The position numbers and the translations under genes were made by a program. From Jimgerdemannia flammicorona (taxonomy: Eukaryota): a DNA stretch of 41,205 bases. Location: contig RBNJ01000111.1 of the NCBI GenBank assembly GCA_003990765.1, forward strand, positions 1-41,205, read 5' to 3'. Positions 9,419 through 31,881 of the stretch are shown one piece after another (within the stretch, counting starts at the first letter, position 1; each line of letters opens with the position of its first letter). The notes beneath the pieces were generated by a model, which searched no databases, was not told the DNA's origin, and was given only the letters and a program-made list of their open reading frames with translations.

Positions 9419-9598
9419 GTTCTTTATAAAAAGGGTTTGTATAATTATTATATATCAGACTTAAGAGAAAGTGTTTTACTTTTGCTAATATTTACTTCAA
9501 TACAAAAGCCCATTAAAGATATATATTTTATAACTATTGATGAATAAAATAAAATATTATCAGCTCTTAAGAATACTATAAAAAAGATAGATAAAGTT

Positions 9599-10387
9599 CA
9601 ATTTTCTCTACTACAATTTATATTATACAAACTTTTGATAATATTTTTAATATAGTATTTAGAGAAAAGGTAATAATAATATAGCAATAAGCAAGAGTTC
9701 TAATAAGTATATTGAGTCAAATAGACCTGGGGTCTTTGGATAGCAGTATGTCAGAAGGGGTTATAGACTGGAGATAGGATCCTTTAGTGGGGCAAAGGAC
9801 CAGGGGGGGTCTGGAGGATGATCAGTATCTAGTGAAGGAGGGGGCAAGTAGAGGTCTGTGAGCTTTACTGTTAAGATAAAGAAAGAAGGTTGACCAGCTA
9901 GCACTAGAGCTAGTGAAGCTAGTGGTAGGAGTAGGATAGATCAGAAGAGAGTGGGAGGTTCTCTGTCTAGAGAAGTAAACATAGGGGCTGGAGGGGCTGT
10001 GGCTGGAAATGAGAGAGTGACTACTGATAGTAGTATAACTAGAGATCTGGAAAAAAATCCAGATATAATAGCTGATAGCAGGGCTAGATAGGAGAGCTGA
10101 GAAAGGAAAGAAGATCTGACAGATAGTGTGATAGATCTGATAGTAGCACTATTACTTAAGAAGTTAATCTTGGAATTTACTATTATATTGTACTTTAGGG
10201 GACTGGTAGTAATAACAAAGATAGTTCTGGAGCTAATCTCAAAGCAGTTATCTGAGACAGTCTCAGTAAAGTTCTTATATAGACTGGAGGAGATTGAGAT
10301 GGAATTTGAGAAGGCAGGACTACTGGAGGAGACTTTGAAGACTGAGTTGATATTTAGAGAGATAGTAGTACTAATGGTAAGATACTT
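9599..10387 (+). mobile_element. LINE-B 5' segment (5'UTR + first part of ORF1), split by insertion of LINE-C
   Basis: Collinear with LINE-A 3510-4290 (e.g. TTATACAAACTT..AGAGAAAAGGTA, AGCAAGAGTTCT, ALLLKKLILEF). The homology resumes at 31456. Confidence 0.85.
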
Positions 10388-12850
10388 CTGAGCAATACCT
10401 TTCTCTAGTACCATTCAGGTTACACAAACTTCTGACAATATTCAAGATAATATGTTTTTGGAGAAAAGATATTAGAATTATAATAACTGATAAGTATTCT
10501 GAGATATATACTGGGCAGAGTGGCTCTAGTACATTTGACTAACAGTATGTAGAGAGAGAGTATAGCTTGGGAGAAAGTATGTGGGGCTTGCTGACTAGGA
10601 GATATAAAAGAGAAGAAGGCAGTATGGGGGGTCAGAGGACTGAGAGAGCAAGCTTTTCTAATAAGGTGAAAGAGAGTCATCTGACAACTAGTCTAGAGGA
10701 CTGGCTGAAAAAGGGCAAGAAGATAGCAAGGACTGCAGAAGCTGGTAGAGTGGCTCAGAGTAGTAAAGACAGTAGAGCTGAGAGAGTGATAACTAGAGGA
10801 AGTGGGACTACTGATGGTAAGGAGACTGCTAATTTGAAAAAAAAAAATCCAGATATAACTAGTGATAGTAGATCTAAATAGGGAGTAGGCATGAGGTCTG
10901 GAGATCTGACTGATAATATAATGGGTCTAGTGGCAGCATCATTACTCAAGAAATTGAGATTAGAGTTTATCATCATACTGTGTTTCTAGGGCTTAGTAGT
11001 GACTGCTAGAATAATTCTAAGGCTTCTGGCCCAGAAGGTGAAGGGAGCTACCTTGGTGAAGTTTCTGAAGGGACTGGAAGGAGTGGAGATAGAATTTAAG
11101 AAGAAGGAGATAATATTGGAGATAATGGAAATGGGGGTGGTGGTAGGGGGAGTAGTGATCTCTATGGCCAGGTATTTATACTGAGACTCTCAAGTTATAT
11201 ATGTAGTTGATAGTATTAGATATTCTTATAGTATTGAAGGAGATAGCCAGAGGGCTGATTGTGGAGGCTATCAAAAAGTATGGAGATATCATAGATATAG
11301 AATTTTAGATCTAGAATGAAACAGAGTTCAGAATGAGTGATATAAATATCAAAGTGCAGCTAGTGAGTAAGAAGAATATGGAGAGAATATAGGACTGGCT
11401 GGTAGTACTTAAGTAGAGACTGGTAGAGTACAAGGTCTTGAGAGTAAAAGAAATACAGGAGGAGGAAGAGGATCTGCTGAAGATATTGGAGGATCTGATA
11501 GAGGCTGTTAAAAGAAAGAGACTGGCCTGAAAGAAGTTTGAGACCAAGATAGTAGTAGAGATTATAAATGATAAGAAGGTGTGGTTGGATTAGGTGGCCT
11601 GAGAGCAGACACAGGGGAGACATATTCAGAAGGATCTGTTGACAAATTTGGAAGGGGGGGCAGCAAGGGGGACCACTATTGAAGATGCTGGATTATAGGT
11701 GAGTATCTGGGTAGAGGAGAAGGGGGGGGCTCCATAGGTGGCCCAGAGAGAGAGAGAGGTAGCTCTGAGTTAAGTGTGGTCATGAAGGATGCCAAGATGG
11801 TCAAGAGGGAGCACTCTCAGTATGGAGTGCCAGGGGGGGCTGCTGGGGAGGAAGAACTGCAGAATATACTGAAAGAGAATTGGATTGAGTTGGCAGAGAG
11901 GAATACAGAGAGAGAGCAGGCAGAGGGGATGTCTAGAGAGTTGAGGAGGCTGTGGACAAGAAGGATTAGTTGTGGAAAATACTTAAGAATGTGGTAGCTG
12001 AGGAGCTGGGAGAGAAGAACTTTTAGATACTAAGTAAGAGATACTGAGGTGAAATTCTACATAGCAAGGAGGTACCAAGGAAAATCTGAGATGAGATAAT
12101 AGTGATATTGCTAAAGACTGAGACTTATCAAGTAGATGATGACAGAGAGGTAGTATATAGGGCAGTGGCAAATAATTGAGCTATATATATATAAAGTCTA
12201 AGAAAGGGACTAGAAAAGTAATAGGTAGTATATAAGAAGTATCAAACTGAGATAGAGGCTGTAGATGATATAGATTATTAGGAGATCTTGGTGGCCCTAA
12301 ATGTTCAGTAGGGAGAGACAGAAGAGCTTGAGGTAGAGAAGAACTTGGATTTTGCAGGTAAAGGAATGAGTATGGAATTGTAGAGTGGACACTTATTCTC
12401 AAAGAACATTATTCATTATAAACAGTATAACTAGAATCTTCTCTTTAAATATCAATGGACTGAGGGGTGCAGTAAGAGATTGGGATATCTTTAGTTGGTT
12501 AAAGGAGCTAGATATAGATATATATTTTCTTATTACAGAATATAGATTATGATGTAGACTTGGACTTACTAGATTGGACAAGAAAATAGAAAGGTATAGC
12601 AGTATGGCAGGGTTGAGTGGGGGACATTGGGGATATTGGATATTGAGAGAGCAGATTGGTATAGAGAGTGTAGAGGAGGCTGGGCTGGAGTCCCCTGACT
12701 GTTGGGTCATACTACTGCCCAGTGAAAAGGGGTAAACAAGTAGATTGGATCCAGAGACTGTGAAAGGCCAGTGTTTTAATAACTATAGGGATTGACTATC
12801 TGGAGGATAACTTCAATATAATATGGGATGACAGTTTTGATAAGAATGAT

Positions 12851-13274
12851 TAGTGCTCCCAATGAATCAAATCGAATCGAATTTGGCTCAAACTCAATTT
12901 GATTTGATCGAATCAAGGGTCCAATTCAATTTGATTTGAATCGAATCAAAGGTCCAATTCGATTTGAAGTTCGATTCGAACCATAATTTTCAAAATGTAA
13001 TAATTTGACGAAAACTCATCCAAATTTAACGTATTTTAGCTTGTTAGATTCACTGTATTAATGTGATTCTAACGAGCTAAAGTACGTTAGATTTGGATGA
13101 GTTTATGCTGAGTTATTGCATTTTGAAAATTAGGGTTCAAATCAGACCCTCAATTTGATTCAACTTTTGATTCAATTCGAATTGATTCGAATTGAAAAAT
13201 CCCCAATTCGATTTGACTTGTTTAACCCTCAATTTGATTCAATTCAAATTGATTCGACTCATTTGGGAGCACTA
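12851..13274. mobile_element. hAT-type non-autonomous fold-back element (MITE), 424 bp
   Basis: Terminal inverted repeats TAGTGCTCCCAA(A)TGA.. / ..TCATTTGGGAGCACTA. Perfect 8-bp TSD AGAATGAT at 12843-12850 and 13275-13282; an 8-bp TSD is diagnostic of hAT. Subterminal AATCG/CGATT arrays. The internal halves are also inverted repeats centred at ~13057. Confidence 0.92.
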
Positions 13275-13745
13275 AGAATGATGGAGGGAGGGATATGGCA
13301 GGCAGGAGTGGAAGGATGGAAGATTAGGAAGAGATTGAGAGACTGAGTTCTTTGGTGGATGCTGGATGACTGGAGTGAGGAGATCATAGGATCTATACTC
13401 ACTGAGTGGCAGGGCTGAGATCAAGGATAGACTGGGTATTTATAGCTGAGTGCTGGGATATAGAAGTCTGAAGTAGGATTGAGACAGTCTGGTATTCTTG
13501 GTCAGACCACTAAGGTTTACTGAGTAGAGAGAGGTTTGGGGGTAGTAGAGATAGGCCTGGATATTGACATCTAAAAGCCTCACTGATGAGAGATAGAGTC
13601 TTGTGGAAAGGATGGGTAGTGGAGGTTAGCACTAGGATCATTAACTAGAGAGTACAGGGGTTAGTGATTGGGGATCATTGATAGTAGTTGAAATCTGATA
13701 CCCAGTACTATTGAGGTGAGACTAGGAGAGAGAGGGGAGCTCAGA

Positions 13746-14512
13746 TGTAATAACTTTTATTTCTATCCCTCTCTTATCCTTTGGATACTTAGGAAAATAA
13801 AATATTACTTAGAAACTTAGTACATAATATATACCAAGAAGCCTTCAGTTTGAGAAAGCTCTTGCTTAAAAGTAGTTATAATAACAGTGTCCTTCTTATC
13901 AACCTTAGTTATAAGGAACTTGTTCTTTGCTATGTACAGACTAAATTCACCTTAGAATTTAGGTTCAATGGGTTTACTTAAGTTTTTGGGATTTATATAA
14001 TGGTCTCAGTTCTGGCAGAAGTTAGCTAGACTTCTGGAGTTTAGTCAGAAATACTAGAGTTACTTAGATGTTATTACTAAAGACTCAGAAGAATGTGTAT
14101 ATGGGGAAGGGGACTTAATTCTTGTATCAAGAACTGAACTAAAACTGCTTTATTTTAGATAGAAACTGGGGAATATTTATACAAGTTGGTCTATGATTTC
14201 TGACTAAGTATAAGTAACTAATTTGGTAACTATAGTAAAGTTTGTAATCATGATCTTTATTAGGTAGTTTGTGGTAAAAAACACTTTGTGATCAGAACCT
14301 CTATTGCTAGACAATAATCAGTATTGCTGTAGTACTAGTTACTGCAATACTGATTACTAGAGATAAGCTAAGATATTATTTTTTACATTATTCACATTAT
14401 TTGTTATTTATAATATCATATATCATACTTGATTATTAGTGACATCATCACTAGATCACATGATCTCTCATCATCATATATCACATCTTACCTGTTTACT
14501 CATTTTATTACA
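13746..14512 (-). repeat. Gypsy-1 3' LTR (767 bp)
   Basis: TGTAATAAC..TTATTACA on +. Collinear over its whole length with 22034-22799. Confidence 0.95.
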
Positions 14513-14525
14513 TCCTTCTTCTCTT
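14513..14525 (-). promoter_or_regulatory. Polypurine tract of gypsy-1
   Basis: AAGAGAAGAAGGA on the minus strand, immediately before the 3' LTR. Confidence 0.85.
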
Positions 14526-14539
14526 AGAAATCAATATTC

Positions 14540-15349
14540 TCATTGATTTGGAAATTGAGAACTAGGGGAGAAAGGTGGAAAATTCTCCTTAGTGTTGTTG
14601 TCTTCTTCTACCATAGCTGAAGAGGTAGTTGTTGATAGTTCAATATAAAGGATGGAGAAGCCAATGAGGTCTGCAAATGGTTCTTGAACTGGTATGGACA
14701 TTGGGGTAGGGGTTCTCTATCTAATATAGTTGGGGCCATCTAAGTAGAGTTCTTGATCCTCATATCTAAAAATATCTATTTGAATAAGCTGCCCTTCAAA
14801 GAGGTCAGAGAGACCTTGAAGCCATTGGTCTGAGTTGTTATTCAGGAGAGAGCTCCAGTAGAGTTTGATGTCAGTAAACTTGAGAGTAATCCAGAAGTTG
14901 GCTTCTTAGGCTATCTTGATCTCTAGCTCATCAATCTCAGAGAAGAAGAGGTTCTGAAAGTTCTTCAGTTATACATAGTTGAGGTTGGGGATTACAAAAG
15001 GTATATAATATATAATTTGATAGACCTTCTTAGCTAGTCTTTACTCATATCTGTCCAGGTTGGTTTAGTCTGAGACCTGATCAGTGAGTAGGCCATTTGT
15101 ATATTGAAGAAGTTGATGGTTAATTTTATATTTATACCAGATTTCTAGGCAGCTGGTAGTAAGGTAGACCCTTTCAATAAGTTCACAATAGTCAAGAACA
15201 TACTGTCTTAAGTCCTAACTAGAGAGATTAAGGACCTCAGAGTAGCCATTTCTTCCTTAGATAGTAATCTAGATATGTCCAAAGAGGTGATCAATCTGAT
15301 TTGGGAGAGATTGACTATAGTGGGCAGTTTGGTAGCAGGTAGTAGGTAT
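14540..15349 (-). pseudogene. Putative extra ORF3 of gypsy-1 (~270 codons, unknown function)
   Basis: One minus-strand frame runs from ATA (ex-ATG?) PTTCYQTAHYSQSLPNQIDHLFGHI.. through ..KNFQNLFFSEIDELEIK..ANFWITLKFTDIKLYWSSLL..QWLQGLSDLFEGQLIQ.. to the PPT. C-ending codons are frequent. The 8 internal stops I counted are all TAA/TAG, as expected from CAA/CAG/TGG transitions. Confidence 0.5.
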
Positions 15350-16034
15350 TCTTGTCTTGTCTTTTCTTTATAGAGAGGAGAGGAGGATGAGGGTTGTAGT
15401 ATATTCTTACCCTGGGTATTTATACTTATTCACTTGTCTAGTATAACTTTAATTCAATTATATCAGAATGTATGACCTATTACTATAAGTAGAGTATATG
15501 CTAGTCATATGAGAAAATTCTGATTTCAAAGATATCACCATATTGTAGTTATAGTTACATAGAATTGACAGATCTTGGTCTTTTTTTTTTTGTCTAGTTG
15601 GCACATTTGTAAGAATTGGCCATCCTTGTCTAGAGTGAGGGCTCCCATTATTGCAGCTGGGAGTTTGAACCTCTCAGAAATAATATTTCTTATAATCTAA
15701 GACAATTTCTAGTATTAATATCTATTATGTAGATAGACTTAAATTAGTTTCAACATCATTGACCTTCTTAAGTTCTATATGAAGTATCTATCATCATTTA
15801 GTAGAGACGATACAGATGGTATAAATGGAATTATTCAAATGTATTTTACTGTACCTTGCTGAATTATTCTTCTTCTGAGTATCTTTTTGTTAATTAATTA
15901 TAGTGTTCCATTTTTCTACAATATTCAGTATTGTATATTCCAAATAAATATATAGTGTCTTCTTCCTTTGCTATATACTCTAGGTTTTAAAGCTATAGTT
16001 CCTTCCTCTGCTAGGGGATGAGTATTTCCATATA

Positions 16035-16200
16035 GTCCTGAAGGGCTTCACATATATTCTCTAAAGCTTTTTCTTTTTTCCAGATGGCATTATAAGTGGG
16101 ATAACTCTTTCACTTGATGAGGAAAAACTGCTTGACTGTTTTGGCATATTTGTAGACCTTATGGTCAAGTACTTCCTTAATTTTGAATTCCTTATAGTTA
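16035..16200 (-). pseudogene. Gypsy-1 chromodomain (C-terminus of integrase)
   Basis: Translates as EFKIKEVLDHKVYKYAKTVKQFFLIK*KSYPTYNAIWKKEKALENICEALQDY, matching the chromodomain pattern (ExExILD..YLVKWxGY..xxTWE..L.N). Confidence 0.85.
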
Positions 16201-19200
16201 TTGATCCTAATTGGGGGTAGTGGTAGAACTATATGCTTAGAGAATGGGTTCTCATAGTAGTCTACTAGTTGACTGATATGGAATACTTGATATACTTGAA
16301 TATAGTAGAGAAGTTACAACTTGTAGTTAACTTTACTGACTTTTTCTACAATCTTATACAGTCCAATTCTTCTGACATAGAGTTTCTTAGATAGTTATTA
16401 TATTAGAGTGTCTGGATAGAGATAGTCTATTCTAAGTATATATGACCATTTTGCCAATATTGTAAGAGACTTCCCTTTACTTCAAGTTTATATACTTAGT
16501 CTAGTAGTTCTATACTTCTATGAGAGCATCTCTTGTCATTCAGATAAGGTCAGAAATGGTCTCAATCAAATCTTGGGTTACTGAGACTGCTGATTTCATA
16601 GTTATGCTTAGGGTCCTTGGATATTGACTATGGTTCAGAAAAAATAGAGTCTTCTTTACAGAGGTTTGCTGGCTATTATTGTAGGCAAACTCAATATGGG
16701 CTAGATACTTATCTTAATCATTTTGCTTATAATAGTAGAAGATGCTGAGCATCTGCTTGAGAGTCTTATTGACTTGCTCAGTCTGACCATCAGTCTGAGA
16801 GTGGTAGGCAGTAGAGAACTTCAGCTTGGTTTCATGGAGAGAGAAGAATATCTTCTAGAAGTTGCTTGTAAACTTGACATCTTGATCAGATATAATAGTA
16901 CTAGACATGCTATATAATCTAAATACTTGGTTGAAAAAGATCTTGGCAATCTCTGGTGCTATGGTGGTGGCCTTAATGGATGCAAAATGGGCTTGTTTAC
17001 TTAGATGGTCCATAAATACTACAATAGTATTCTATCCTGTCTTAGTCTTGGGGAGCTGGACAATGAAGTTCATTACAATCTGGTCCCAGTTGTAACTTGG
17101 AATAGACAGGAGTTGCAGAAGTCCTACTGATAGCTTGTTACTGCTTTTGAACCTTTGACATATCTTACATGAGATAACAAAGTCTTTGATATTCTTTATT
17201 AGCTTTGGCTAGTAGAACTCTCTTAAGAGGAGGTTATAAGTCTTCTCAAAACCAAAGTATCCTACTATAGGAGTGTCATGAAGTTCCTCTATAATCTTGA
17301 GCTGCAGAGTATTATTATTAGGTACAACTACTCTGTCATAATCTCTATAGATAAGTCCTTCATAGTGAGTGAATCTTTTTAACATTTGTTTTATAGATTC
17401 TGAAACCTCAGCTTCTGAGTCTAAGGAATTTCACCAGAGGGCTGTCCTGTTGATAGCCATCCTTGATTATCTGGATAAGGTCTCCAATTACCTCAACTAT
17501 GAAGACAAGTTCATCTTCCATATACCTAGAGAAACCATCAGTCATATAGTTGATTTTGTCTGAGATATACTTGATTTCTATATCAAAGTTGACAATGATT
17601 TCTATCTAGCAGGCTTGTCTGTGAGTTAGCATGGACTGTGTGTGAATGTACTACAGAGTATAGTAATTAGTATAAGCTATAAATAGTTGTCCTAGGAGGA
17701 AATAGTGCAATTCCTAGAGTACAGTGATAATGGCCAAGAGTTCCTTCTATAGATAGTATACTAGGTCTCAGCTGGCTTGAGCTTTTGGAAAAGATAGGCC
17801 ATAGTAATCCTCTTGACTGAGTACTATCCTAATAGCAATATTAGAGACATCTGTGGTCAGAGTAAATAGCCTGGTAGGGTCAGGTGTAATTAGTATTGGA
17901 GCCTCAGTAAGAAGTCTCTTGAGATGGTCCATAGCCTGAGTATACTTAGGGGTCTATTTAGTCTTGATTTTCACTGCTTTGCAGGCCAGGCTGGTCAGTA
18001 GACTGTAATAGTAGAGTATCTTTGGATAAACCTTCAGTAATAGCTAGCAATATCCAGGAAGCACTGGAGTAGCTTGAGGATAGTGGGAATAGGAATATCC
18101 TTGAGGGCTAATACTTTTCAGAGGTCCATATTAATACTTTCAGTAGAGATGATATGTCTTAGGTACTCAATCTAATCTTAATACAACTTATACTTACTCA
18201 TTTTGGCATAGAGCTAGTATTCTTGCAGAAGGATCAGTATCTGCCTAAGGTGGATGTAGTATAGCTCTACTGTTTCACTATAGATTAGTATATTATCAAT
18301 ATATATAAGGACATAAATATTGAGCAGTGGTCCAAAGATATCATTCATCAGATACTAGAATATTACTGATGTATTGATCAAACCAAAAGGCATAACTTGG
18401 AACTAGTAGTATCCAAACCACATTTGGAAAGCTGTCTTCTCAATATCCTTCTTATTAAGTAGAGAAAAGGTCTTGGCCTTAAAGATTTAGTGCAATAATT
18501 TATCAATTCTAGACAAGATATACTAGTTCTTAATAGTGATCTTATTGAGAGCTCTGTAGTTAATACATATTTATAAAGAACCATCCTTCTTCTTGACAAA
18601 CAGAATGGGGGCTCTAAATGGAGAGTAACTGGGTCCAATATATCCTTAGACCATTAGTTTGGTCAACTTATCTTTAAGGGTCTTGAGTTTTTATTTGGGC
18701 CAGTTGGTAGATACTCTTATATAGAGGTTCAGATTCTGGAATGAGATCAATTTTATATTAGATTTGGCACTTGGGTGGAAGTCCTTGGGGATCCTGGAAT
18801 ATATCTTGGAATTCCTCAAACAATTCTTGAGCTTCTGATAAGATTGGACTACTCAGAGCTTCAGTGACTTCTTATATAGTATAGATAAAGTAGGTGTTTC
18901 CTTTTTTGTAGGAGAGTCTCTTCATTTGAATGACAGAGATGATTTCAATTTCTTAATAGTTGATATCTTCCTGGGGTATCAGGGTGATCTTTCTGTCTTT
19001 ATGGGTCAGGTTAATCTCATTGGTCCTTTAGTTAATATCTGGGTTATACTGGATCAACCAGGCTTTTTCTAGGATAATGTCTTGTCCTGGGAGGTCTATA
19101 ATACTGAAGTCTAACTTCTCTTGATATTTGCCAATCCTGAGTAAGAGGTCTTCACAGATCTTAGTCAATGGTGCAGTCTCACTATTACCAAAGATAACAC

Positions 19201-19336
19201 TCTTTTTCTTGATGACTGGTCTGCTTTGGGCTCTAATCCTCTTGGCTGTCTTGGTGTTGATATAGTTTCCAGTAACACTGCTGTTAAGTAAGACATTAAT
19301 ATTCTGTCTGTAAACTTGGTCTGTAACTTGATACAA
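16200..19336 (-). pseudogene. Gypsy-1 pol (protease, RT, RNase H, integrase), disrupted
   Basis: Protease INVLLNSSVTGNYI (ex-LLDSGATGN) at ~19270. RT [32 protein letters not shown] at ~18600 and YIDNILIYS (ex-YxDD) at ~18290. Integrase zinc finger HDTPIVGYFGFEKTYNLLLREFY*PKL..SCKICQRFK at ~17150-17280. Confidence 0.92.
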
Positions 19337-19659
19337 CTGTCCTCCTTCTTGATAGTGTTGAGCTCTTTATCCTTATTATTGTTCCAGTTGCTATCAGTCT
19401 CCTTAAAGTTAGTTTCTCCTCATCCTTCACAAGAAGGGTGGTCTTGTTTGGGTTCCTCAGTCTGTTGGGCTTAGCATTTCTCAGATTGGAGTTTGAAAAC
19501 TTTGGAGAGATATGTATGGCATTCACCAATATATTTTATATAGTATATTTAGATAGAATGAGAACATTATCTATATGGTATATAACTATCTATAATTCTC
19601 TTATACTAGTTTTCATCATCTTCCTTCATAGTGGTGATCTTTTAACTGAGAAGTTTGTT

Positions 19660-20070
19660 GGTTGATCCAAACCCTTTCTTACTACAATCTATCTGAGAGA
19701 GTTCAGGAACTTCTTCAATAGTGAGATCTTGATAGATTTCTTCAATGATTGCTTGAGCAATTCTTTGGCCTGCTTTGACCTCAAATGATGTATCTTCAAA
19801 ATTTTGCAAGATGACCTAGATTTCACTAGTAAATTCTTAGTCAACTACTCCTCTTTCTAGACCAATGTTGAATTCTTTAACCAGGCTGCTTCACTTGGCA
19901 AGACAGATATATATACCTTTGGAGACTTTTATTGCAATCTCAATTTGTACTATAGCATTGGTACTTGGTGGGATAGTGAGGTCTTGGCTACTGTAGAGGT
20001 CATATCTGATATCAGTGAGATAGACCTTAGTAGAGATAGTAGCCTTATACTATATCTTCTGTACTTTGAT
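19660..20070 (-). pseudogene. Trimeric dUTPase domain within gypsy-1
   Basis: One frame of 137 codons: IKVQKI*YKATISTKVYLTDIRYDLYSSQDLTIPPSTNAIVQIEIAIKVSKGIYICLAK*SSLVKEFNIGLERGVVD*EFTSEI*VILQNFEDTSFEVKAGQRIAQAIIEEIYQDLTIEEVPELSQIDCSKKGFGST. All five motifs occur in order (GYDL, RSGL, GVVDxxFxGEI, GQRIAQ, RGxKGFGST) after reverting transitions. Confidence 0.9.
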
Positions 20071-20139
20071 GACATTCTCAGAGTTCTTCTTTTCTAGACC
20101 TTCTCTAATAATAGTGATGTTCTGATTACTAGATTTACC

Positions 20140-21930
20140 TGATCTGTTTCTCTTCTCAGAATATCTGACTGAGATATATGTATCTTGCCTTTCTGTAGAT
20201 GAAGCACAATCCTTTTTCATGAAACTGCTTCTTTTTATCCTCAGTAGGGGGTCTTGGTTCTCTGGGGTTTTACTAGTTTCTTTGTTCATTTCTTTGATCA
20301 TTTCATTGATCATTCCTTCTTGTGGAATTTCTTCTATCTTAGTTATCCATTTTGTGTTCTGGATTTCATGAGGTCTATACAGTAAGGATTTCATGGACTC
20401 TTCTTTATACTTAAATAAAGCACTATAAGTAGTAGAGATATCTTTAGGAAAGGCCTTATTCCTTAATCTTCTGAGTGAGCTAGTCTGGTAGGGCTGCAAA
20501 GAGGTAGTTGGCTCTGATACTATTGATGGCCAAATTGTTTTTCTGGTAGGTAAGTTCAACAGTTTTGAGGTAGGCATCTATTCTGATAGCAAAGATTTCT
20601 AAGTCCTCCTAACCATTCTTATGGAACTTCATTTGGACTAGTTTGTTCCAAGTTTCTTATATATAGGCTATATTTTAGAATTTGGTCAATAGTAGGGCCT
20701 TGAGTCCTGGGCCTGCTTTATAGTTATTCCATCCTGGTTTGTTATTACTAGATGCTTGGCCTGCAACTTGAGGGCAGTCTTTCCAGATTACTGGGTGTTC
20801 TTCCAAGGTATACTAGAACTCAGCTACTATTCCAGTAAAGAATATAACTATTATTTCCACTTATGCTGCTGATGTGGCAAACAATTATTGAAGGGTGTTG
20901 TTCTGGTTATTGGTAAGCATTCCTATAGATACTCAGCTATCATTCCATTGGTTTACTCAATAACCTATATCAACTATATTGATGAAGATTTCGATGTTAC
21001 TGTTTTTTTCACTGAATGTAGAGATTCACAAGATCTTGGTTGATTTGTTCTGTTCAGCAATTTGTCCTACTATCTCTGCTAGTATAGCTAGCTGGATAGT
21101 CAGTACTATAATATTGTATCTATCATTGTGTTGACTATTGGTGGTGGTCTTGTGTGGGTAAATTCTCCTGAAGATTGTTCTGTCTAATGAGGTTATAGTA
21201 CTATATAACTTGGGGTTACTTGATTTCTGAATATCAGATTAAAGAGTTCTATAAGAGATAGTAGGCCAAATCTCTGTATAGGTGGCTGGATTGATTCAGA
21301 GGTCTGATCTTCTTGATCTGTAGGTTCTTGGTAAATTCCTAGGTCTGCTGTTTCTTGTTAGCTATCATCAGACTGGTAATCTGTAGAGTCTTCATCTGAC
21401 TCCCTTCCCTGATGAGATAGTATATCCTTGTACTGACTAGGTCCTTCAAAGAGGATATCTGCTTCTAGTAGAATAGATAGGTCTGCTTCTTGATTAGTAG
21501 TAGGAGATAGATGACCTGCTTGCTCATTCTTATATTTTATTATAGCAGAGTCATAGTATACAACTAGCCTATAGTAGAGGGAGGTCCTGGTAGAAGTATG
21601 ATAGTATCTATCAGATATAATCTACTTGATAGCTGCTTCTTTAGCAGTAGGGAGTGAGATATAATCTAGGAATTCCTAGATAACTATAGCAGTAGATTCT
21701 TGGGTCCTAGTGGTTTCAATATAGCTGTGGAGAAGTTCATAGAACCTATAGTGGCTGACTATATTTCTAAGACCTGGGTGGAAAGTCCTAATGACCTGAT
21801 ATAGATCCTTATATATCTGATTAATTATAAGCTGGTGGGTCCTTTGGTCTGTATTTTCCTAGTACTACCTGGTCCTAATGGCAAGGGCTTGTCTGGCTCT
21901 GGTTTGGGGGTTTGTTCCTAGAGAATTCAC
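20140..21930 (-). pseudogene. Gypsy-1 gag, with CX2CX4HX4C zinc knuckle relic at ~20150-20215
   Basis: EKGLCFIYRKARY[ATAT insertion]ISVRYSEKRNRSGK reverts by transitions to CFICRKAGHISxRCPEK. A long degenerate frame lies upstream. The start is approximate. Confidence 0.65.
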
Positions 21931-22016
21931 AGTTAGTTCTAGAAATTACTTCTGTCTAAGATTAGTCTTATTCCAACTTCTTAGGAGTATATTCTTAATG
22001 CCTTCTTGGCTCAGTA

Positions 22017-22033
22017 ATCTATTGCTACTAAGT
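22017..22033 (-). promoter_or_regulatory. Probable primer-binding site of gypsy-1 (degenerate)
   Basis: The minus strand reads ACT-TAGTAGCAATAGA directly after the 5' LTR. This is compatible with a G>A-mutated TGGTAGC.. (initiator-Met tRNA-type PBS). Confidence 0.35.
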
Positions 22034-22799
22034 TGTAATAATTTTTATTTCTATTCCTCTCTTATTCTTTGGATACTTAGGGAAATAAGGTATTACTTAG
22101 AGACTTAGTATATAATGTATATCAAGAAGCCTTCAGTTTGAGAAAGTGCTTGCTTAAAAGTAGTTATAGTAACAGTACTCTCCTTATCAACCTTGGTTGT
22201 AAGAGACTTGTTCTTTGCTATACACAGACTAAATTCACCTTGGAATTCAGGTTCAATGGGTTTACTTAAGTCTTTGGGATTTATATACCAGTCTCAGTTC
22301 TGACAGAAGTTAGCTAGACTTTTGGAGTTTAGTTAGAAACACTAGAGTCACTTAGATATCATTATTAAGACTCAGAGAAATGTGTGTGTAGGGGTGGAGA
22401 CTTGATTCTTATATCAAGAACTAAACTAAAACTGCTTTATTTTAGATAAAAACTAGGGGATATTTATACAAGTTGGTCTACAATTTCTGACTAAGAATAA
22501 GTGACTAATTTGGTAACTATAGTGAGATTTTTAATCACAATCTTTATTAGGTAGTTTGTGGTAAAAAACACTTTATAATCAGAACCTCTATTGCTAAACA
22601 ATGATAAATATTACTATAGTACTGGTTACTGTGGTACCAATTACTAGAGATAAGCTGGAATATTGTTTTTCATATTGTTCACATTGTTCATCATTTGTAA
22701 TATTATATATCATGCTCAATCATTGGTGACATCATCACCAGGTCATGTGATCTCTTATTGTCACATATTATATCTTGTCTGTTTACTCATTCTATTATA
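22034..22799 (-). repeat. Gypsy-1 5' LTR (766 bp)
   Basis: TGTAATAAT..CTATTATA on +, with the terminal CA mutated to TA. Direct repeat of 13746-14512. Confidence 0.95.
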
Positions 22800-24393
22800 C
22801 TAAAGGAGGAGGCATATTTAGTAGGCTTTACTGAGGCTAGCAAAACTACTGAAGAGGTGGGCTGGGGCTTTGGCAGACTGTGAGGAAGGAGACTGAAGGA
22901 TTCAGAGGATCTAGTAGAAGGTGAATGAACTGAAAGAGCTACTTAGACAGAAGGAGGAATTGCAGATAAAGAGAATGACAGCTCAGTTAAGGTGGTAGGG
23001 TTTGGAGGAAAGAGAGCAGCCTACTAAATTTTTGTTGAGATTACTGCAGGCAAGGAGGATGAGACAGCAGTGAGAAGGAGTACTGAATGAGACAGAGAAT
23101 ATAGTAACTAGAATACCAGAGATCTTAGATCTATTGCAGAATTATTGGGAGTAACTATAGAGTGAGGAGAAGAGAGATGAAAATGCTCTTAGTATGGAAT
23201 GACAATTAGAGGATTGGTACCCAGATTCAGCTGCAGGTCTAGGCAATCTTGGCACCCTGGTGCAGAGAGAGAAGATGTGTCAGGTCTTGGTAATGACAAA
23301 TATGGAGATAGCTTCTAGAGAGAATGAGTTGTCTTGGGATTTTTGGAAGAAGATGGCTGAAGTTGAGATTGTGCTGGAGGAGATGGTGTGGATATATGAT
23401 GAGATCATTAGCTCAGGGATCTGAATTGGGAGACAGTACCTAGAACTTATAGCTCTATTGTATAAGAATAAGAGAATAAGGGAGAATTGGAGAAACTAAA
23501 GACCAATTATACTTCTGGATATAGATCACAAGTTAGTGATAAAGATTTTGGTAATCAGGCTGTAAGAAGTGACTTAATAAGTAGTAGGGACTGAGCAGAG
23601 GGGCTTTGTCAGTAGTCATTTAATTCATAATAGAACAGCATGGGTCTATAGTATTATTGAGAGTACTTATACAGCTGGAGTTGATAGTCAACTAGTCTTT
23701 TTGGATCAGAAGAAGGCTTATAATAGAGTTTAGTATATATGGCTGAAGGGGGTATTGAAGCAAATGGGGGTCTCTCTAGGATTTAGAAGATTATTGATTT
23801 ATCTATTGAAGGAGAGCTGAGTAGCTATTATAGTAATTAGGCATAGGAAAGAGTCCTCCTCTCTGAGCAGAGGAGTGCCACAAGAAGATCCATTATTACT
23901 GATTCTATATGCCCTCTCACTGGAGCCCTTATTGGATAAGATATGATATAGAGTTGGGGGTTTGGACATTTTGAGAGTGAACTGGAAGGTTGGGGCCTTT
24001 GCTGATAATATAGTAGTTGGGCTGAGCTCTGTGAAGGATGTGATGGTACTAAAAAGTATAGTAGAATGGTATGAGAGGTATTTGGGTACTAGACTCAACT
24101 GGTATAAGTGTGAGACTCTGGTCCTAGATAGAGGAATAGTGGGTGGAGATGTAATCAGAATAGTGGTTCTAGCTAGTGAGACAGTTCATTATCTGGGGAT
24201 TTATTTTTTAGTATATAGCTCTCTGCTATCTCATGGTTGATGGGAGCAGAGGCTACTAGCATGGGGGGATGTTCTCTTGAGGTTAAGAGGCTATTATATC
24301 TCACTGACAGAGAGAGTGATGGTGCTGAATGTATACTGGCTGCCAAAGTTATAGTATCTGGGATATTACTTAGACTTTTTAGCATAGGTGGTC

Positions 24394-24410
24394 AAGAGAC
24401 TGATGAAGAC
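24394..24410 (+). repeat. Left TSD of LINE-D (AAGAGACTGATGAAGAC); right copy at 30198-30214 (AAGAGACTGATGAAGAT)
   Basis: 16-17 bp direct repeat. LINE-C ORF2 (..VVKRLMK..) rejoins when LINE-D is removed. Confidence 0.95.
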
Positions 24411-24583
24411 AAGGACTTCTTTTGCTTGAACCATTCGGAGAGAGCTAAGCCACACAGACATCTTTCAGCAAAAGACAACACGTTTTCAAGTTTTTATTTT
24501 GAACATACTGGTGTACATTGTGCAGTGGGAGTCTACCTACAAGGCACAACAAGTTTCAAGGAAAACCGTCAAGTTTTGGTAAC

Positions 24584-26450
24584 ATGGCTAGTCAAGATTC
24601 TTCTAGCTCTGAGCATCTGGAGAGGAGGAGGCCTGGTCTGGGCATTCCCAAGAGTTTTGTGGCTGCTGCAGGGACTGGAGTAGATGCAGGAGGGGCTGGG
24701 GGACAGAGGAGGACTGGTGGGATCGAGACCTGGCATATGGTGGTAGGGAATAGGAGGGCTGCCACTAGGCCCATGGGGGTGAGACAGGGGGGGCGTAGTG
24801 TTGACAGGGGGAGGGGTCAGGTGACGAGTCAGGTGACAGGTCAGGTGGCTGGCAGGGGACAGGGGTCTGGTGGTGTGATGCGGGGACTGGTTCTTCTGTG
24901 GCTGGGTAGGTGGCTGGGGAGAGGACTGCTGGTAGCACAGCTATACCTGGAGGGACAACCATGGGTGTATCAGGGGCTAAAGGAAAGGTGACTCTGGTGG
25001 CTGGGACTGGCGAGCTGATAGTGAGGCCTTTCTTCTATAAATCAGTGTTGACATGGGCAATCTCAGTGAACTTCCTGGGATTGGCAATGTCAGCAAGGGA
25101 GGTTCTGAGGATGGTGGGAGAGGAAGTGGCTGGGGTGGAGTCTCTGAAGTTCATCCCTTCAGCAGAGGCGGTGGAGATTGGCTTTGTGGAGGAGGATGCA
25201 ATGGTGAAGGCATTGGAGAAAGGGATGACTGTCAAGGGTGTTAAGATTGGGATGGCGAGGTGTCTGAGGTGGGATCCACATGCGGTTCGGCTGGTGGTGG
25301 AAGGATTGCCAACCCTGGGCAGACAGGAGACCAAAGAGATGGTGGTTGAGGCACTGGGTGGATATGGCAAGATGGTGGACTTCAGGTTCATGTTCTGGGA
25401 GGGTACCAAGTTGAGGAATGGCAACTGCGAGGTGATGCTGCAGCTGGAAGGCAAAGAGGCGACGGGGCTGGGCCACGATTGGCCTGAAGGGATCCGGATT
25501 GGAGGGCAAGAGTGCAAGGTCTGGAGGAGGAAGAGAGTGGAACAGGAGGAGGAAGAGTTGGCAATTGCTCTGGAGGAGCAGGAGGCTGCCAAGGAACTGC
25601 AGAAGAGGAAGTGGGAGGAGTATGCCAAGGATTGGGTCTGGATTCAAGTAGATGGCAAGCAGAAGAGGTGGAGGAAAGGGAATTGGGAGCATCTGCAGGC
25701 AGCCCTCCAAGGGGTGGCAGTGGAAGAGGAGGCAAGAGCAGAGGCCGCCAAGAATCAGATGGAAGGAGTGGAGGCAGCAGAGGTTTCCATCTCCCAGCTG
25801 GGTGGTGTGGAGGACTCAGCACATGCGCCGGTGAGAGGAAAGTGGGTGGATAAGGAGGAGGTTGATGAGGGAGGCTTTGAGGTGGATGACAAAGTGGTGC
25901 CGGAGACTCAGGTGGAGGACACCCATATGGCCGGGGCAGCGAATGTCCATTGGGAGTGCCCAGAAGTGGGTAAAGTAATTTATTTAGAGAAGGTTGTAGA
26001 GGAGGATGAGCTGGTGGATGTGGCTTCTAATGTGTCGGCTGATAGGGAGCAACTGCAAGAGCTGAGCAGGACCCCCAGGCCCTTGACCCCTGGGCCCCTG
26101 GTGATGACAGCGAAGAGCTGGTACCAGGCGGTGCTTGAGGAGCTGGCAGAGGAAGACATCAAGGAAGTGGATGTGTTTCATGGATCTCAGGAGGTATGGG
26201 AAGGATTTCTCAATGTAGCAATGTAAGGGCCTAAGCTGGTGATGGTGATGGTGGCCACCCTTCTGGATGATGAAGGATATGATGTAGATGAGAGCAGAAT
26301 GGCCAACATCAGAAAGGTGACAACTGAAAGAGTGGACCTTTTCTACAGCAGTGCAAATGGTGACCAAATCTGGAGGGCAATTTGCGAGGACCAGTGAGAG
26401 ATTGTCTGTGGAAGAGCTGAGAAGGTGGTGGCAGTTCCAGCTGAGCTTTA
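24584..26450 (+). pseudogene. LINE-D ORF1 (Gly-rich N-terminus, RRM-like core, acidic/coiled C-terminal half); one frameshift and late stops
   Basis: The MASQDSSSSEHL frame shifts into the 24910-26226 frame. The core AVRLVVEGLP..VVEALGGYGKMVDFRF..RNGNCEVMLQL..PEGIRIGGQECKV resembles L1/Tx1 ORF1 RRM regions. The end point is approximate. Confidence 0.75.
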
Positions 26451-26463
26451 AACAAATTCCTTT

Positions 26464-29400
26464 ATGATGAAGAACAATCTACGTATTTTGTCAATCAATG
26501 TCAATGGATTGTGGGACAGTGTTAAACGATGGCGACTGTTCAGATGGCTTAAAGTTAGAAGGTATGATGTGGTGTTTCTTCAGGATACTCGGACTTATGG
26601 CAAGTCAGATTATGAGATATGGAGTAAAGAATAGTATAGTGGAGCTGGCTGGAATAAGCAGATAGGCATTTTGATTGGTGTGGGCAAAGGCAAGTTGGTG
26701 GAGGTTGAGATCTATGGTGACAGACTGATTTGGGGAAGGATTACAGAAGGGGCAGGTGATGGGTTGACAGTTGGCTCAGTTTACCTCCCTGCGGTTGGCA
26801 GAGAGTGAAAGCAATGGGTTGAAAGATGGCAGGCATGAGATGGGCGGGAGGAGGTTGCTTTGGACATTTTGGGGGGGGACTTCAATATGGTGCATGATCG
26901 AACACTAGATAGGTCTGATGGTGGGGCAGGAGTCATGGTTTCCTCTGGACTTTCGCAATGGCTTCAGGTGGAGCACGACATGGGCTTGGTAGATGGTGTT
27001 CATCAACATCAGGGGGATAAGCTAGGATCTTTCACTCAGTGGCATCCAGTTGGAACAACATTGGTTGGGACACGAATTGATTGGGTGCTAGTGGCGGAGT
27101 GCTGGGGCAATGTACTAGATACTATCGAGGTGTGCTGGTGTCCGTGGTCTGATCATTGGGGTGTGGAGGTTTGTGGTAGATTTCAAGCAGCGGGCAGTGG
27201 TGGAGGGCGCTGATGCCTCAATATGGCCCTACTCAAGAGGAAGACAGAGAGGGATAATTTTGTGGCAGTGGTGAGACAGGAAGTTGGGCGATGGCGCAAT
27301 GAAGGACAGTTGATAGCAGAATGGTGGGGTAAATTCAAACATCTGGCTGGGGCTTACTGGCGAGATGTCAGAGAAGTAGCTGGGAAGGAACAGAAGGATA
27401 AGGAGAGAAGGGTAGAGAAGGGGCTATGATAGTGGTTGAAGCTTTTGGAAGTGGGGGACCTATCTGGAGAGGTGTGCCGCTGATTGGTATTAGAGGTGGC
27501 AGAGCTACAGGTGGATTTAAGGGTGTCTGAGACCAGGGTGGTAGATGGCCTGCTAGCCAGGCTGCGGTCCAGGCGGCTAGAGGAAGGAGAGAGACCAACA
27601 AGATATCTGTCTGGAGTTTTGAAGGCTAGGAGGGTGCAACACAGTTGGGCCTCAGTTTTGCGAGAAGATGGAGTGGAGGTCTCAGAGATTGCAGACATGT
27701 TAGGGGAGGTGTCTGGTCAATGGCAAGCTCTTTGGCAGGATGGCGGGGAGCATGCTGAGGATATAGGGTTTGGAGAGGATGACAACAATATGGTGACCAA
27801 TTGGCCAGTGACTGCGATACCTGGGATAGGTGAGGCAGTCATGGGAGAGGTATCTCTAGATGAAGTATTGGAAGTGCTGAGGAAGACACAGACTGGTTCA
27901 TCTCCGGGAGAGGATGGGCTGCCCTGGGAATTCTGGAAGGAGTTTAAGTCAGAGTTTGGTGACTGGTTGGTGGAGATGGCCAATGCAGTTCTGAAGGAGG
28001 GCAGCTGGATTGGAAATGGTTTCTTGGGGCTAGTCTCTCTTCTATACAAGAAAAAGGGTGATCGACGGGTGTGACGTAACTGGTGATCTATCATGCTGCT
28101 GAATGTAGATAGAAAGCTAGTTTCAAAGATTCTGGCAGAGAGGATGCAGCAGTATATTGGTATGCTAGTTGGAGAAGAGCAGTGAGGCTTTGTCAAGGGG
28201 AGGCAGATTAGAGATAGTACTGCTTGGGTGCAGAATGTCTTAGAGGGCTGTAGGAGCCAGCAGGTAGATGGCCAGATGGTCTTTCTGGATCAAGAGAAGG
28301 CCTATGACAGAGTGCGGTAGAGTTATTTGGAGGCGGTTCTGAGGAGGGTAGGGTTTAGTGTAGTAGAGGCAGGGTGACTGATGGGTCTGGTAAGGGGATG
28401 CCGAGCAGCGGTAATGATGAATAGATGGTGTGGACCGGAGTTTGCCTTGGGGCGAGGGGTACCACAAGGGGATCCCTTCTCTCCTCTTCTTTATGTACTT
28501 TCTCTGGAGCCTCTGCTGGTATGGCTGAAGGGGCGGCTCTCTGGTCTGCAGATGGGAGATGTGCTCTGGTAGTTGGGTGCCTTTGCAGATGACATGGTGG
28601 TAGGGTTGGGTAGCTGGGAGGATGCCGAAGTCCTACAGGAAGGGGTCAGACAGTATGAGAGGCTGGCAGGAGCAAAGTTGAACTGGGGCAAGTGTGAGAC
28701 TATGGAACTTGGTGCTGGCCTGGGGGGATATGGACAATTTGGACAATTGGTAGCTACAGGGAGTGCTGTTCATTATTTGAGTATCTGGTTTTCAGTATAT
28801 GGGACGGTCCTATCAAGGGAGTGGTGGTGTGGATTGGTTCAGAAGCTGGAAGGTGTGCTGACAGGATGGTCAGGAAGGAGCTTCTCATTGGTTGGCAGGA
28901 TTGTGGTCTTGAATGTGTATTGGCTGCCCAAGCTGTGGTATCTGGGTTATCATCTAGATTTTCCAGGGTGGGTGGTGCAGTGGCTGAAGAAGATTGTAGA
29001 AGGGTGGTTATGGCGGGAGAGGCGCCTACAGATTGAGTGGGAGACTTTGGTGATGAGGGTTTCTGATGGAGGCCTGGGGCTGGTGGATTTCAAGTGGCGA
29101 CTGAAGATACTTCGGGGCTGGTGGGGGTGCCGACTGAAGGAACTAGGTGAGGAAGGTTGGGGCAGGCTGGCTATGGACAATTGGGAGGTCAGGTTCTGCC
29201 CTCGTGGTGAGGTTTGGAAGGATATGCGGGGTTTGCTGCAGGTTGGAAATGTAGGTAGACTGCAGTTTAAGGGGTTCTGGTGGGGCATTGTAGAGGCCTG
29301 GCTGGCCATGGGGTTGACAGGCCCAGAGATAGAGGTAGACAAGAACCCTGAGCAGCAATGGTGGTGGCTGGGAGACCTTCACGTAGGTGGCCACAGTCTG

Positions 29401-30086
29401 AAGGAGTACTCTCTGATTGAGGCAATGGAGTGGATCAGGTCTGGCCTACTGGAGAGATGGCCGCCTGGTTGGCAGAGAGCTGGTATTGGTGAAGACTGGG
29501 AGTGGGGTCGAATTTGGAATTGGGGAGACTCCATACGCAAGATGGTACCACCCAAGTATTGGGTGGTTTGGTGGCAATTCCTGAGACATAATGTGATGCT
29601 GAGCTACAGGACAGGCTGGATGGAGATTGATGGCTGTCGGGACTGTGAGTGGTGTAATGAGGTGGATGGCGGGGTTGTGCAGATGCCTGAACATGTCCTG
29701 GGGGCATGGAAGGGTTTTGGCAGAGTTTGGAGGAGTACTGGGACCTGGCAGGGCATAGGGCAGAGTATCCAATCAGTCTGGTGGTCAAGCACCGACTGGT
29801 AGGGGAGATTGGTGACATATGGGGGGGCCTTGGTCGAGTATTGGGGGTCTGGGTCTTGATGGCAGTTCATTGGTGGTAGGTTTTCGAACAGGACCCATGG
29901 ATGGGGATTGGAGAAATAGTGGAGCGGTGGAGGTGGCTTCTCCAGGAGGTGGTTCAGGAGTGGTGGTATCAGGGGAAGCAACTTTGACCTGGGGCCCTAA
30001 AGAAGGTACAGGACATTGTCCAGCAGAGCCAAGGGTACCTAGTGTTAGATGATCGTGGGGTAAGATGGAAGGCAGGAGTTGGCTGA
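26464..30086 (+). pseudogene. LINE-D ORF2 (APE endonuclease, RT, Cys/His finger); single frame to ~29700 with scattered stops, then a frameshift
   Basis: Motifs in order: LRILSINVNGL, FLQDT, GGDFN, TRIDW, WSDHW, SPGEDGLPWEFW, DQEKAYDRV, RGVPQGDPFSPLLY, GAFADD, KLNWGKC, GGLGLVD, CRDCEWC..PEHVLG. Confidence 0.93.
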
Positions 30087-31455
30087 AGTATGCTACTTAC
30101 ATATGTATATTATATGGTGTTAGTAGTGTATTGGGGTTCATGGTTATTGTATTAGATAGTTCATAATAAAGGAGTCCATGTGACTATAAAAAAAAAAAAG
30201 AGACTGATGAAGATGGCCAGATCATAGATCTGGATAGGACAGCAGAGCCAGATTAGCTGGGAGATGTTGATATTACCAGTAGACTGAGGTGGGCTGGGCC
30301 TGGTGGACTTCACCAAGTACCTATATTGTTTGAGGGTATGGTGGCTGAAGCAAGTGAGTAAATTGTGGGGTCAAGAGTAAGTATCCCTTATGTAGAGAGT
30401 GTGGAAGGCTCAGTGTTCTCCCTGAGATATGACTGGTGATCTGCTCTCTTTAGTGACCCTCAATAAGAGTAAGAAGATATACTATAAAGGATTCTGGTAG
30501 GGAGTAGTAGATAGGGTCTACTGCATTAGTCTCAGATGGAGAAATGATAAGGAAGAAGAGGAATAGAGACCACAGATGTGGAGATGGAACTGTCTACTAT
30601 TAGGAGGTATGCCAGTGGAAGACTTTCAGTTAAAAGATAGCATAAAATGTCTCCAGAAGCATGGGAGGGATTTGTGGCCAGAGGTCTGGCAAGGGGTAGA
30701 GATTGGTGAAGGGTGAGACTGAAATGGTGTCTGGCCTTAGTACACAGATGGTAAGATAGCTCCCCTCTAAGTTCTGGGTAGTATAGTGGTGGGTACTGAG
30801 GCACAACATCATACTGAATTACCAATCAGGATACTTGATAGAAGGGGGGAATTTAGAGTGTGAGGAGTATATAGATATTGGGCAGATGGGGGATATAGTA
30901 CAGACTCTTGAGCATTGGCTAGAGGAGTGTGAGGTTCTGGGAGATTTCTGGAGGGTCATTGAGGACCAGCTAGAGTTGTAATCTTTAGGGGAGGGGAAGG
31001 GTGAGAGGTGGGGGGATCTCTGGCAAAGGCTGGTGAGAGGAGTTGGGAATGAGTGATTAATATTGGGGTGGACACTGGCTATTTGGATTGGGCTTGCCAG
31101 ACATTGGCTCTATGTATTTGAGAATGGTTAATGCATAGTGATTGGAGTGTAGGTTGTATATTAGGAGTGATTACTACTGGACATCCTGAACAGTTGGTAG
31201 AGGGGGTGGAGACCTGGAGGGAGAATCCATAAGTAGCTTGTAGAGTGTATTTGTGAGAAAAGTAGGGAGAGGGTTGGGGTCACTGGGGAGTTGGTAACTC
31301 TCTAGAGAGATGGGGAGAGTGGAGAGGAGGGGAGTTAGTATGAGATTGGGTGAAGGGTATGTCTGTGCCTTTGTATTAATATAATATAGATTAAATAGTA
31401 ATTGGTAATAAAGTGAAGTCCAAGTAACTATAAAAAAAAAATAAAAAAAAAAAAA

Positions 31456-31881
31456 GTTAACAAGATGCTTGCAGGGGGACCCCAGGGTGATGCAACTCTT
31501 AGTAAAGAGAGTATCTATAATAATAACTGCTGAGATAAGACAGAGGGTGGAGGAGGTGATAGTAGAATATAGAGATATAATAGATATTAGCTTTCAAGTC
31601 TGGGAGAGAATAATGTTCAGAACTGGGGATGTGAATATCTAGCTTTGACTTGTAGAGAAGGAGGCTATGGGAAAGGCTAGAGACTAGTCATCAGTATTAA
31701 TGTAAGATGAATTTATCTGTAAGGTGACAAGGGTGAAGGAGAGTGAGATAGAGGAGAAGGATCTGCTAGAAGTACTAGAGTACTTGAGTAGGGCAGTAGA
31801 ATATTGAGCAGTAGTATGGAGAGAATATGTGGTAAGAGAAATGAGAGATCAGTAGCTCTATAATGATGGAATACTGGAGGT
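31456..31881 (+). mobile_element. LINE-B ORF1 continuation after LINE-C
   Basis: Collinear with LINE-A ~4285-4672, picking up where 10387 stopped. Confidence 0.8.

Follow-up and report, generated by a model that had tools for sequence, protein, structure and literature searches.

A probable Gag-dUTPase fusion in a chromodomain-bearing Ty3/gypsy family, read from a hypermutated copy in Jimgerdemannia flammicorona

A 41,205-nucleotide stretch of DNA from Jimgerdemannia flammicorona (contig RBNJ01000111.1 of assembly GCA_003990765.1, positions 1 to 41,205; the window in what follows) carries a 9.05 kb Ty3/gypsy retrotransposon on its minus strand. Very probably this element is a dead, hypermutated copy of a chromodomain-bearing family in which Gag extends beyond the CCHC zinc knuckle to take in a dUTPase of the trimeric type and a short Cys/His-rich tail; in active copies this enzyme would be built into the particle and limit uracil in the cDNA. 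The dUTPase had been noticed in an earlier note on this DNA, made from the letters alone.

A dUTPase domain beside the Gag zinc knuckle

The earlier note claimed that all five motifs of trimeric dUTPases occur in order on the minus strand, interrupted by four stops, and proposed a profile search with the stops reverted. We translated positions 19642-20577 of the minus strand with stops written as X, which gives a 312-residue read (P0001). The Pfam dUTPase profile PF00692 matches residues 179-306 of this read with an E value of 2.6e-21 and 76.2 bits (cut-off 22), spanning 126 of its 129 positions (3-128), a match far beyond chance. The five motifs can indeed be read in order in the window copy, where mutations have altered motifs I, II, III and V, and motifs II and III contain stops. 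The four in-frame stops (TAG, TGA, TAA and TAG at read positions 176, 229, 247 and 254) align with W, R, Q and R, respectively, of an intact relative, P0003, described below. Three of them fall inside the domain and the fourth lies one codon upstream, at 20050-20052. Over 139 columns the window domain is 78% identical to that of P0003. The features of this region are as follows.

20161-20194, minus strand: mutated CCHC zinc knuckle, interrupted by a frame break of one base; equivalent to P0003 residues 243-256
19660-20043, minus strand: dUTPase domain (PF00692, E 2.6e-21), with three of the four in-frame stops inside
19474-19650, minus strand: Cys/His-rich tail after the dUTPase, aligned with P0003 residues 427-485 in the same frame
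19471-19473, minus strand: TAA closing the Gag-dUTPase frame; P0003 ends at the residue just before this codon
19028-19366, minus strand: aspartic protease, one base back (-1) relative to the dUTPase frame in the window copy (Pfam RVP_2, E 0.0033, under the curated cut-off)

The first half of the window knuckle is in another frame and the second half is in the dUTPase frame; the pieces of P0003 placed on the window by tblastn overlap or meet at 20171-20178, inside the knuckle. The tail gives a single Pfam hint, a weak one to a zinc ribbon (E 0.034). The protease open reading frame (ORF), which contains a readable though mutated D-S-G motif, begins 293 nucleotides from the end of the dUTPase domain, close to the 320 or so estimated earlier. 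Residues 212-317 of a further dUTPase-bearing protein, P0089, also map to the protease region (19336-19022, tblastn).

Relatives with the same Gag-dUTPase frame

A full HMMER pass over 1.84 billion representative proteins returned 8727 proteins at E ≤ 0.001, among which one close relative stands out. This best match, P0003 (485 amino acids), is 73% identical to the window read (E 4.3e-72) and contains a dUTPase domain recognized by Pfam with an E value of 4.6e-33. It consists of Gag sequence, a perfect C-x2-C-x4-H-x4-C knuckle (residues 243-256), 26 further residues, the dUTPase (envelope 283-426) and a 59-residue tail with six Cys and three His, the knuckle being in frame with the dUTPase. 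The distance agrees with the approximately 25 codons given in the note. A second protein, P0153 (552 amino acids), covers the amino-terminal portion of this Gag; in the stretch that it shares with P0003 the two are 97% identical. Placed together on the window, they imply a Gag-dUTPase frame of 817 codons.

A more distant protein, P0154 (385 amino acids, 37% identical, E 1.3e-61), has Gag, knuckle and dUTPase in the order found in P0003, and behind the dUTPase another knuckle-like motif begins. In the set P0001-P0156 (156 proteins), a CCHC knuckle occurs in only three (P0003, P0154 and P0089), each time 23-27 residues before the dUTPase envelope. The common Gag-CCHC-dUTPase order of P0003 and P0154 argues that the domain belongs to the family, and by this comparison the dUTPase is a kept feature of a deeply diverged group of elements and not a one-off insertion. 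The in-frame tether between knuckle and dUTPase that the note had proposed is therefore seen in intact relatives. The note had named siblings lacking the domain as a possible refutation; the relatives recovered, P0003 and P0154, carry it, and P0003 has the whole knuckle and the dUTPase in one frame.

Further searches added little. The degraded window read, used as a query for longer fused forms, gave one weak match, to a copia-type protein with a dUTPase. Scans of metagenome DNA for relatives gave 48 pattern matches with P0003 alone and 209 with the alignment of P0003 and P0154, none confirmed; the 74 pattern matches in viral contigs were likewise not confirmed, and the ESM Atlas yielded no usable match to P0003.

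An enzyme of the cellular eukaryotic type

When P0003 is compared with the sequences of solved structures in the PDB, the closest chains are 3p48 and 3f4f (E 3e-32), 1q5h (3e-31) and 4oop (1e-30). Retroviral chains among the matches are far weaker, with E values of 6e-18 for 1duc and 1.5e-13 for 1f7d ('POL POLYPROTEIN'). Judged by their PDB codes, the best 60 matches include no chain known to be that of Mason-Pfizer monkey virus (M-PMV).

An AlphaFold model of P0003, made from a 100-row alignment, has the jelly-roll beta fold of solved dUTPases. Its predicted local distance difference test scores are 93-98 for residues 281-420, approximately 87-92 for the knuckle, 50-57 for the tail and 40-77 for the helical part of Gag. 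The top Foldseek entries for the model are the human, Arabidopsis and yeast dUTPases, each 46% identical, with target-normalised template modelling (TM) scores of 0.89-0.96 and root-mean-square deviations of 0.9-1.7. Sequence matches and predicted fold thus agree in indicating a dUTPase of the cellular eukaryotic type. The much stronger match to cellular eukaryotic than to the listed retroviral dUTPases argues against shared descent with the retroviral enzymes, and on this comparison with the listed retroviral chains a separate origin is probable. Because identity to the yeast, human and plant enzymes is equal, the donor cannot be named.

Of the 19 columns that are invariant or nearly so in an alignment of 100 dUTPase sequences, P0003 retains 17. 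Among these are the Asp of motif III, the Arg-Ser of motif II and the Phe of motif V. By these residues, the enzyme of intact copies looks able to work.

Hypermutation of the window copy

The long terminal repeats (LTRs) of the element are 86.1% identical over 754 aligned columns, and 99 of the 105 mismatches are transitions. The ratio of observed to expected CpG is 0.01 within the element (13746-22799), compared with 0.93 in a neighbouring enolase gene. Set against P0003 and P0153, 242 of the 815 Gag-dUTPase codons differ; for 203 of these, C>T and/or G>A changes alone lead from a codon for the residue in the relative to the codon in the window, and for only eight do the reverse changes. Stops occupy 36 of the 815 codons, all but two of them (34) fitting C>T or G>A. 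The window Gag also contains two one-base frame breaks, at approximately 21116 and at 20171-20178 inside the knuckle.

The stops, the frame breaks and the one-directional C>T/G>A changes together mark the window copy as a dead, hypermutated fossil, and this copy itself can supply no dUTPase activity. Near-absent CpG and one-directional change point to repeat-directed hypermutation in the host. The pattern of base changes resembles fungal repeat-induced point mutation.

Alternative readings

Several observations weigh against reading the element as a copy from such a Gag-dUTPase family. P0003 begins at an internal Met on a contig of 2037 bases, and may itself derive from an imperfect copy. Its departures from near-invariant columns are Phe for Tyr in motif III and His for Arg in motif V, and P0154 has Lys for Arg in motif IV. 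Finally, no intact Pol relative was found: each of the 40 matches is remote (26-35% identity across 12-29% of the query, from plants, Phytophthora and others), none extends over the start of Pol, and the best reach 30-35% identity over at most 29% of the query. Since there is no such relative, the link between Gag-dUTPase and the protease rests on one degraded copy.

The strongest competing explanation, which we lean only slightly against, is that the dUTPase actually forms the amino end of Pol, like that of the Postia placenta element PosPlaTy3-3. The TAA would then be leaky or a shared defect, nucleocapsid, dUTPase and protease would form one read-through polyprotein, and the -1 offset of the protease would be an indel of the window copy. 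Between the gag stop and the protease ORF, the gag frame has one stop in 34 codons, compared with nine in 35 for the -1 frame, that of the protease. Codon usage, modelled from the coding segments of the element itself, likewise favours the gag frame after the stop (log-likelihood -133.9, versus -137.3 and -141.2), although the model chose correctly in just 16 of the 22 windows used for cross-validation. In P0089, which belongs to another lineage, the CCHC knuckle, dUTPase and protease share one open frame, and the window copy has at least two other frame breaks. Conversely, P0003 ends at exactly the window's stop, which suggests that the stop is ancestral, and the +1 frame is open as well (no stop in 35 codons). 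It is conceivable on these data that Pol continues in the gag frame, with an indel in the window copy.

Much less probable is a programmed -1 ribosomal frameshift joining Gag-dUTPase to Pol, like that of betaretroviral gag and pro; the earlier note had raised such a shift before the protease. The window protease does lie one base back from the dUTPase frame, but the nine stops in its frame after the gag stop are accompanied by seven more in the 61 codons before it. True coding frames carry about three stops in 130 codons: in the dUTPase segment the true frame has three in 130, and its -1 frame 17 in 129. By eye, no slippery heptamer of the form X XXY YYZ occurs in the last 12 gag codons. The distribution of stops makes a programmed -1 shift at the gag stop unlikely, and this part of the note finds no support.

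We think it similarly improbable that catalysis has been lost in the family and that the domain survives as a trimer-forming building block of Gag. Placement in Gag would supply one copy per capsid subunit, and the substitutions in motifs III, IV and V listed above could be taken in this sense. The Phe in place of the motif III Tyr is common to P0003, P0154 and the window copy. The position of the motif V Arg is His in P0003 and Cys in the window copy, which may reflect decay of those copies and not a family trait; moreover, the conserved columns are kept nearly throughout, the motif II, III and V residues named above among them.

That a host dUTPase fragment was inserted once into a single copy, or that the assembly is chimeric, is hardly credible, given that P0003 and P0154 come from other sources and have the same order, that Gag and dUTPase share the same mutation pattern, and that we found no point in its favour.

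Anatomy of the element and its surroundings

The element is bounded by direct repeats of 767 and 766 bases and reads, in order, LTR, Gag, CCHC knuckle, dUTPase, protease, reverse transcriptase, RNase H, integrase, chromodomain, polypurine tract and LTR. Three-frame Pfam scans with stops as X found dUTPase, RVT_1, RT_RNaseH_2, Integrase_H2C2 and SH3_Tf2-1 in that order; the weak RVP_2 and Chromo matches came from scans of shorter pieces. In addition to the features given above, the element comprises the following.

22034-22799, minus strand: 5' LTR, aligned to 13746-14512, with termini TG...CA
21118-21915, minus strand: amino-terminal part of Gag (P0153 residues 2-266 on 21912-21118, 70% identity, tblastn), followed by the frame break at approximately 21116
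20195-21115, minus strand: middle part of Gag, in a different frame in the window copy (P0153 residues 268-545 on 21115-20282 and P0003 residues 1-254 on 20920-20171, tblastn)
18160-18510, minus strand: reverse transcriptase (RVT_1, E 5.1e-11)
17678-17953, minus strand: RNase H (RT_RNaseH_2, E 7.5e-13)
16257-17316, minus strand: integrase with zinc-binding domain, core and SH3-like end (Integrase_H2C2, E 2.3e-15; SH3_Tf2-1, E 1.1e-8)
16026-16187, minus strand: probable chromodomain, degraded, directly after SH3_Tf2-1 (Chromo, E 0.0014, 19 bits, cut-off 25.1 bits)
14513-14525, minus strand: polypurine tract, a 13-base purine run adjoining the start of the 3' LTR
13746-14512, minus strand: 3' LTR, aligned to 22034-22799

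The paired LTRs and the order protease, reverse transcriptase, RNase H, integrase are those of a Ty3/gypsy element, and its domains make it a probable chromovirus, with a chromodomain match that stays below the Pfam cut-off because the copy is degraded. Pfam assigns no family to P0153, the amino part of Gag. No primer-binding site was recognisable in the element. The candidate target-site duplication at its ends (TCAGA versus CTAAA) differs at three of five positions, all by transitions, and was not counted. Between chromodomain and 3' LTR, a stretch of approximately 1.5 kb (14526-16025, minus strand) is without a recognised domain, and an extra ORF or a long untranslated region is possible there. 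Just outside the 3' LTR, at 12922-13194, lies an inverted repeat with 132-base arms that are 77% complementary and nine bases apart.

Several related copies of a non-LTR element resembling long interspersed nuclear elements (LINE-like) occupy approximately 3700-13700, 22800-31500 and 34300-38100 on the plus strand, and the gypsy element appears to have inserted into one of them. One copy has an endonuclease match (Exo_endo_phos, E 1.8e-4, 26839-27213). These copies contain long ORFs rich in G, E and W, and their coding strand is extremely G-rich and C-poor, with a GC skew of 0.4-0.55 over many kb and an observed/expected CpG ratio of 0.26. A second, different and less degraded chromovirus fragment at approximately 31900-33540 (plus strand) reads in one frame through an integrase zinc domain, SH3_Tf2-1 (E 6e-14) and a chromodomain (E 1.2e-8). 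Being cut off on its 5' side, it is uninformative about the dUTPase.

The enolase gene used for comparison of CpG is a multi-exon gene at 1189-2615 (plus strand) with Pfam matches to Enolase_N and Enolase_C (E down to 5.9e-77). At the other end of the window, four ORFs of 128-150 amino acids on the minus strand (38775-41158) have no Pfam match and, by eye, a faint likeness to degenerate protein-kinase motifs. This region is partly repeated, 39530-39631 being 82% identical to 41103-41204.

dUTPases in other retroelements

We ran Pfam on 37 of the 150 listed matches, picked for length, and eight of them carry retroelement domains. P0077 and P0089 have a dUTPase followed by a protease, with the knuckle in front in P0089. 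The order in P0100 is protease, dUTPase, reverse transcriptase, and in P0131 integrase SH3, chromodomain, dUTPase. P0051, P0065 and P0067 are copia-type proteins with a dUTPase, and P0027 combines three dUTPase repeats with a weak protease match. These placements mirror the three positions published for Postia placenta.

Tandem dUTPase domains, two or three per chain, occur in 25 of the 156 proteins (P0004-P0016 and others), and their summed scores rank them above single-domain enzymes. These 25 multi-domain proteins and five without a long enough domain were dropped from the dUTPase tree, which holds 126 of the 156 proteins. The window copy groups with P0003 (support 99) and with P0154; the backbone is unresolved, and in all 66 of 123 inner branches are so. 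In an approximately unbiased (AU) test, a single clade for the four knuckle-linked dUTPases was not rejected (p 0.866). Because the short free search ended 77 log units below the constrained tree, the tree is unusable for counting captures. The earlier note had inferred an independent capture. That idea is strengthened insofar as the enzyme is closer to cellular eukaryotic than to the listed retroviral dUTPases; as to separate captures among retrotransposons, the tree and AU data neither show nor exclude them.

Proposed role of the Gag-dUTPase

Lowering the uracil content of cDNA is the role proposed for retroviral dUTPases. In active copies of the present family, the dUTPase would enter the virus-like particle as part of Gag, beside the RNA-binding knuckle. 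There it could hydrolyse dUTP, such that reverse transcriptase would put less uracil into the cDNA. Even relatives with no more than 37% identity still have knuckle and dUTPase linked, and this conservation speaks for a benefit of the enzyme to the element.

A more specific version of this proposal is rather doubtful. On this view Gag would always include the dUTPase, placed after the CCHC knuckle and ahead of a second Cys/His module. The stop of gag itself would close the frame, pol would be reached by read-through in the same frame, and every capsid subunit would bear an enzyme that is an obligate trimer. If so, every subunit would carry the enzyme, compared with a minority of subunits in betaretroviruses, and trimer formation might aid particle assembly. 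As far as a full-text literature search reaches, dUTPase at Gag stoichiometry is undescribed for any retroelement. Should the gag placement apply in intact copies, the family would offer a natural case of an enzyme produced at the level of the capsid protein, with which one could ask what quantity of dUTPase a reverse-transcribing particle requires. The family in any case adds one to the known retroelements with a dUTPase of their own.

Comparison with known systems

Novikova and Blinov (2008) and Riccioni et al. (2008) reportedly gave the earlier accounts of fungal elements that bear a dUTPase. In Novikova et al. 2010 (PMC2864245), several chromoviruses of Postia placenta are described as having a dUTPase, placed either at the amino or the carboxyl end of Pol or between protease and reverse transcriptase. 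The elements named there are PosPlaTy3-3, PosPlaTy3-4 and PosPlaTy3-5, with the dUTPase of PosPlaTy3-3 at the amino end of Pol, before the protease. The same text cites earlier dUTPase elements from Phanerochaete chrysosporium (2008) and Tuber (Tmt1, 2008), and its authors suggest independent acquisitions. Llorens et al. 2009 had already compared the dUTPase of betaretroviruses with the enzyme of 'various fungal chromoviruses'. Fungal chromoviruses with a dUTPase have thus been in print since 2008, and the published forms include one that precedes the protease at the amino end of Pol (PMC2864245). The earlier note, which allowed that a few fungal gypsy elements carry a dUTPase, overrates the novelty of the arrangement.

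The window family resembles these fungal elements (PosPlaTy3, P. chrysosporium, Tmt1), as far as their descriptions go: they are Ty3/gypsy elements with a chromodomain, a probable one in the window copy, and their coding region includes a dUTPase of the trimeric type. It seems to differ from PosPlaTy3-3, as portrayed in that text, in the frame that holds the enzyme: the window domain also precedes the protease, but in the relatives it stands in the gag frame, where the CCHC knuckle comes before it and a Cys/His tail and a stop follow. Our full-text literature search, whose coverage left most subscription papers outside, found no retrotransposon described as carrying a dUTPase within its gag frame. 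The position of the domain within the gag reading frame, before the gag stop, is possibly a new detail. We compared the layouts by text, and the figures of Novikova et al. 2010 (PMC2864245) may already depict this arrangement.

Betaretroviruses provide the other close parallel. As Hizi and Herzig 2015 (PMC4531489) describe in the text at hand, the nucleocapsid-dUTPase of mouse mammary tumour virus (p30) and M-PMV is a gag/pro trans-frame product. Here too, the zinc-finger region of nucleocapsid lies on the amino side of the dUTPase, ahead of the protease (PMC4531489). In the accounts available, the betaretroviral fusion arises by a -1 frameshift from gag to pro, with the protease following in the same frame, whereas in the window family, as P0003 and P0154 show, knuckle and dUTPase share one frame that ends in a stop. 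The enzyme itself is closest to cellular eukaryotic dUTPases.

Rotifer elements (Juno, Vesta and TelKA) and planarian LTR elements are, like the window family, Ty3/gypsy-like with a dUTPase. In the passages available from Rodriguez et al. 2017 and Arkhipova and Yushenova 2019 (PMC5408684, PMC6431247), the dUTPase of rotifer, planarian and fungal elements is placed between protease and reverse transcriptase; the rotifer and planarian elements, in contrast to the window family, have this placement and no chromodomain.

The domain is 46% identical to yeast Dut1 (3f4f, 3p48), human 1q5h and Arabidopsis 4oop, and it has their fold and their five motifs. These cellular dUTPases are free-standing proteins, whereas the domain of the window family is part of a retroelement Gag and has Phe in place of the motif III Tyr.

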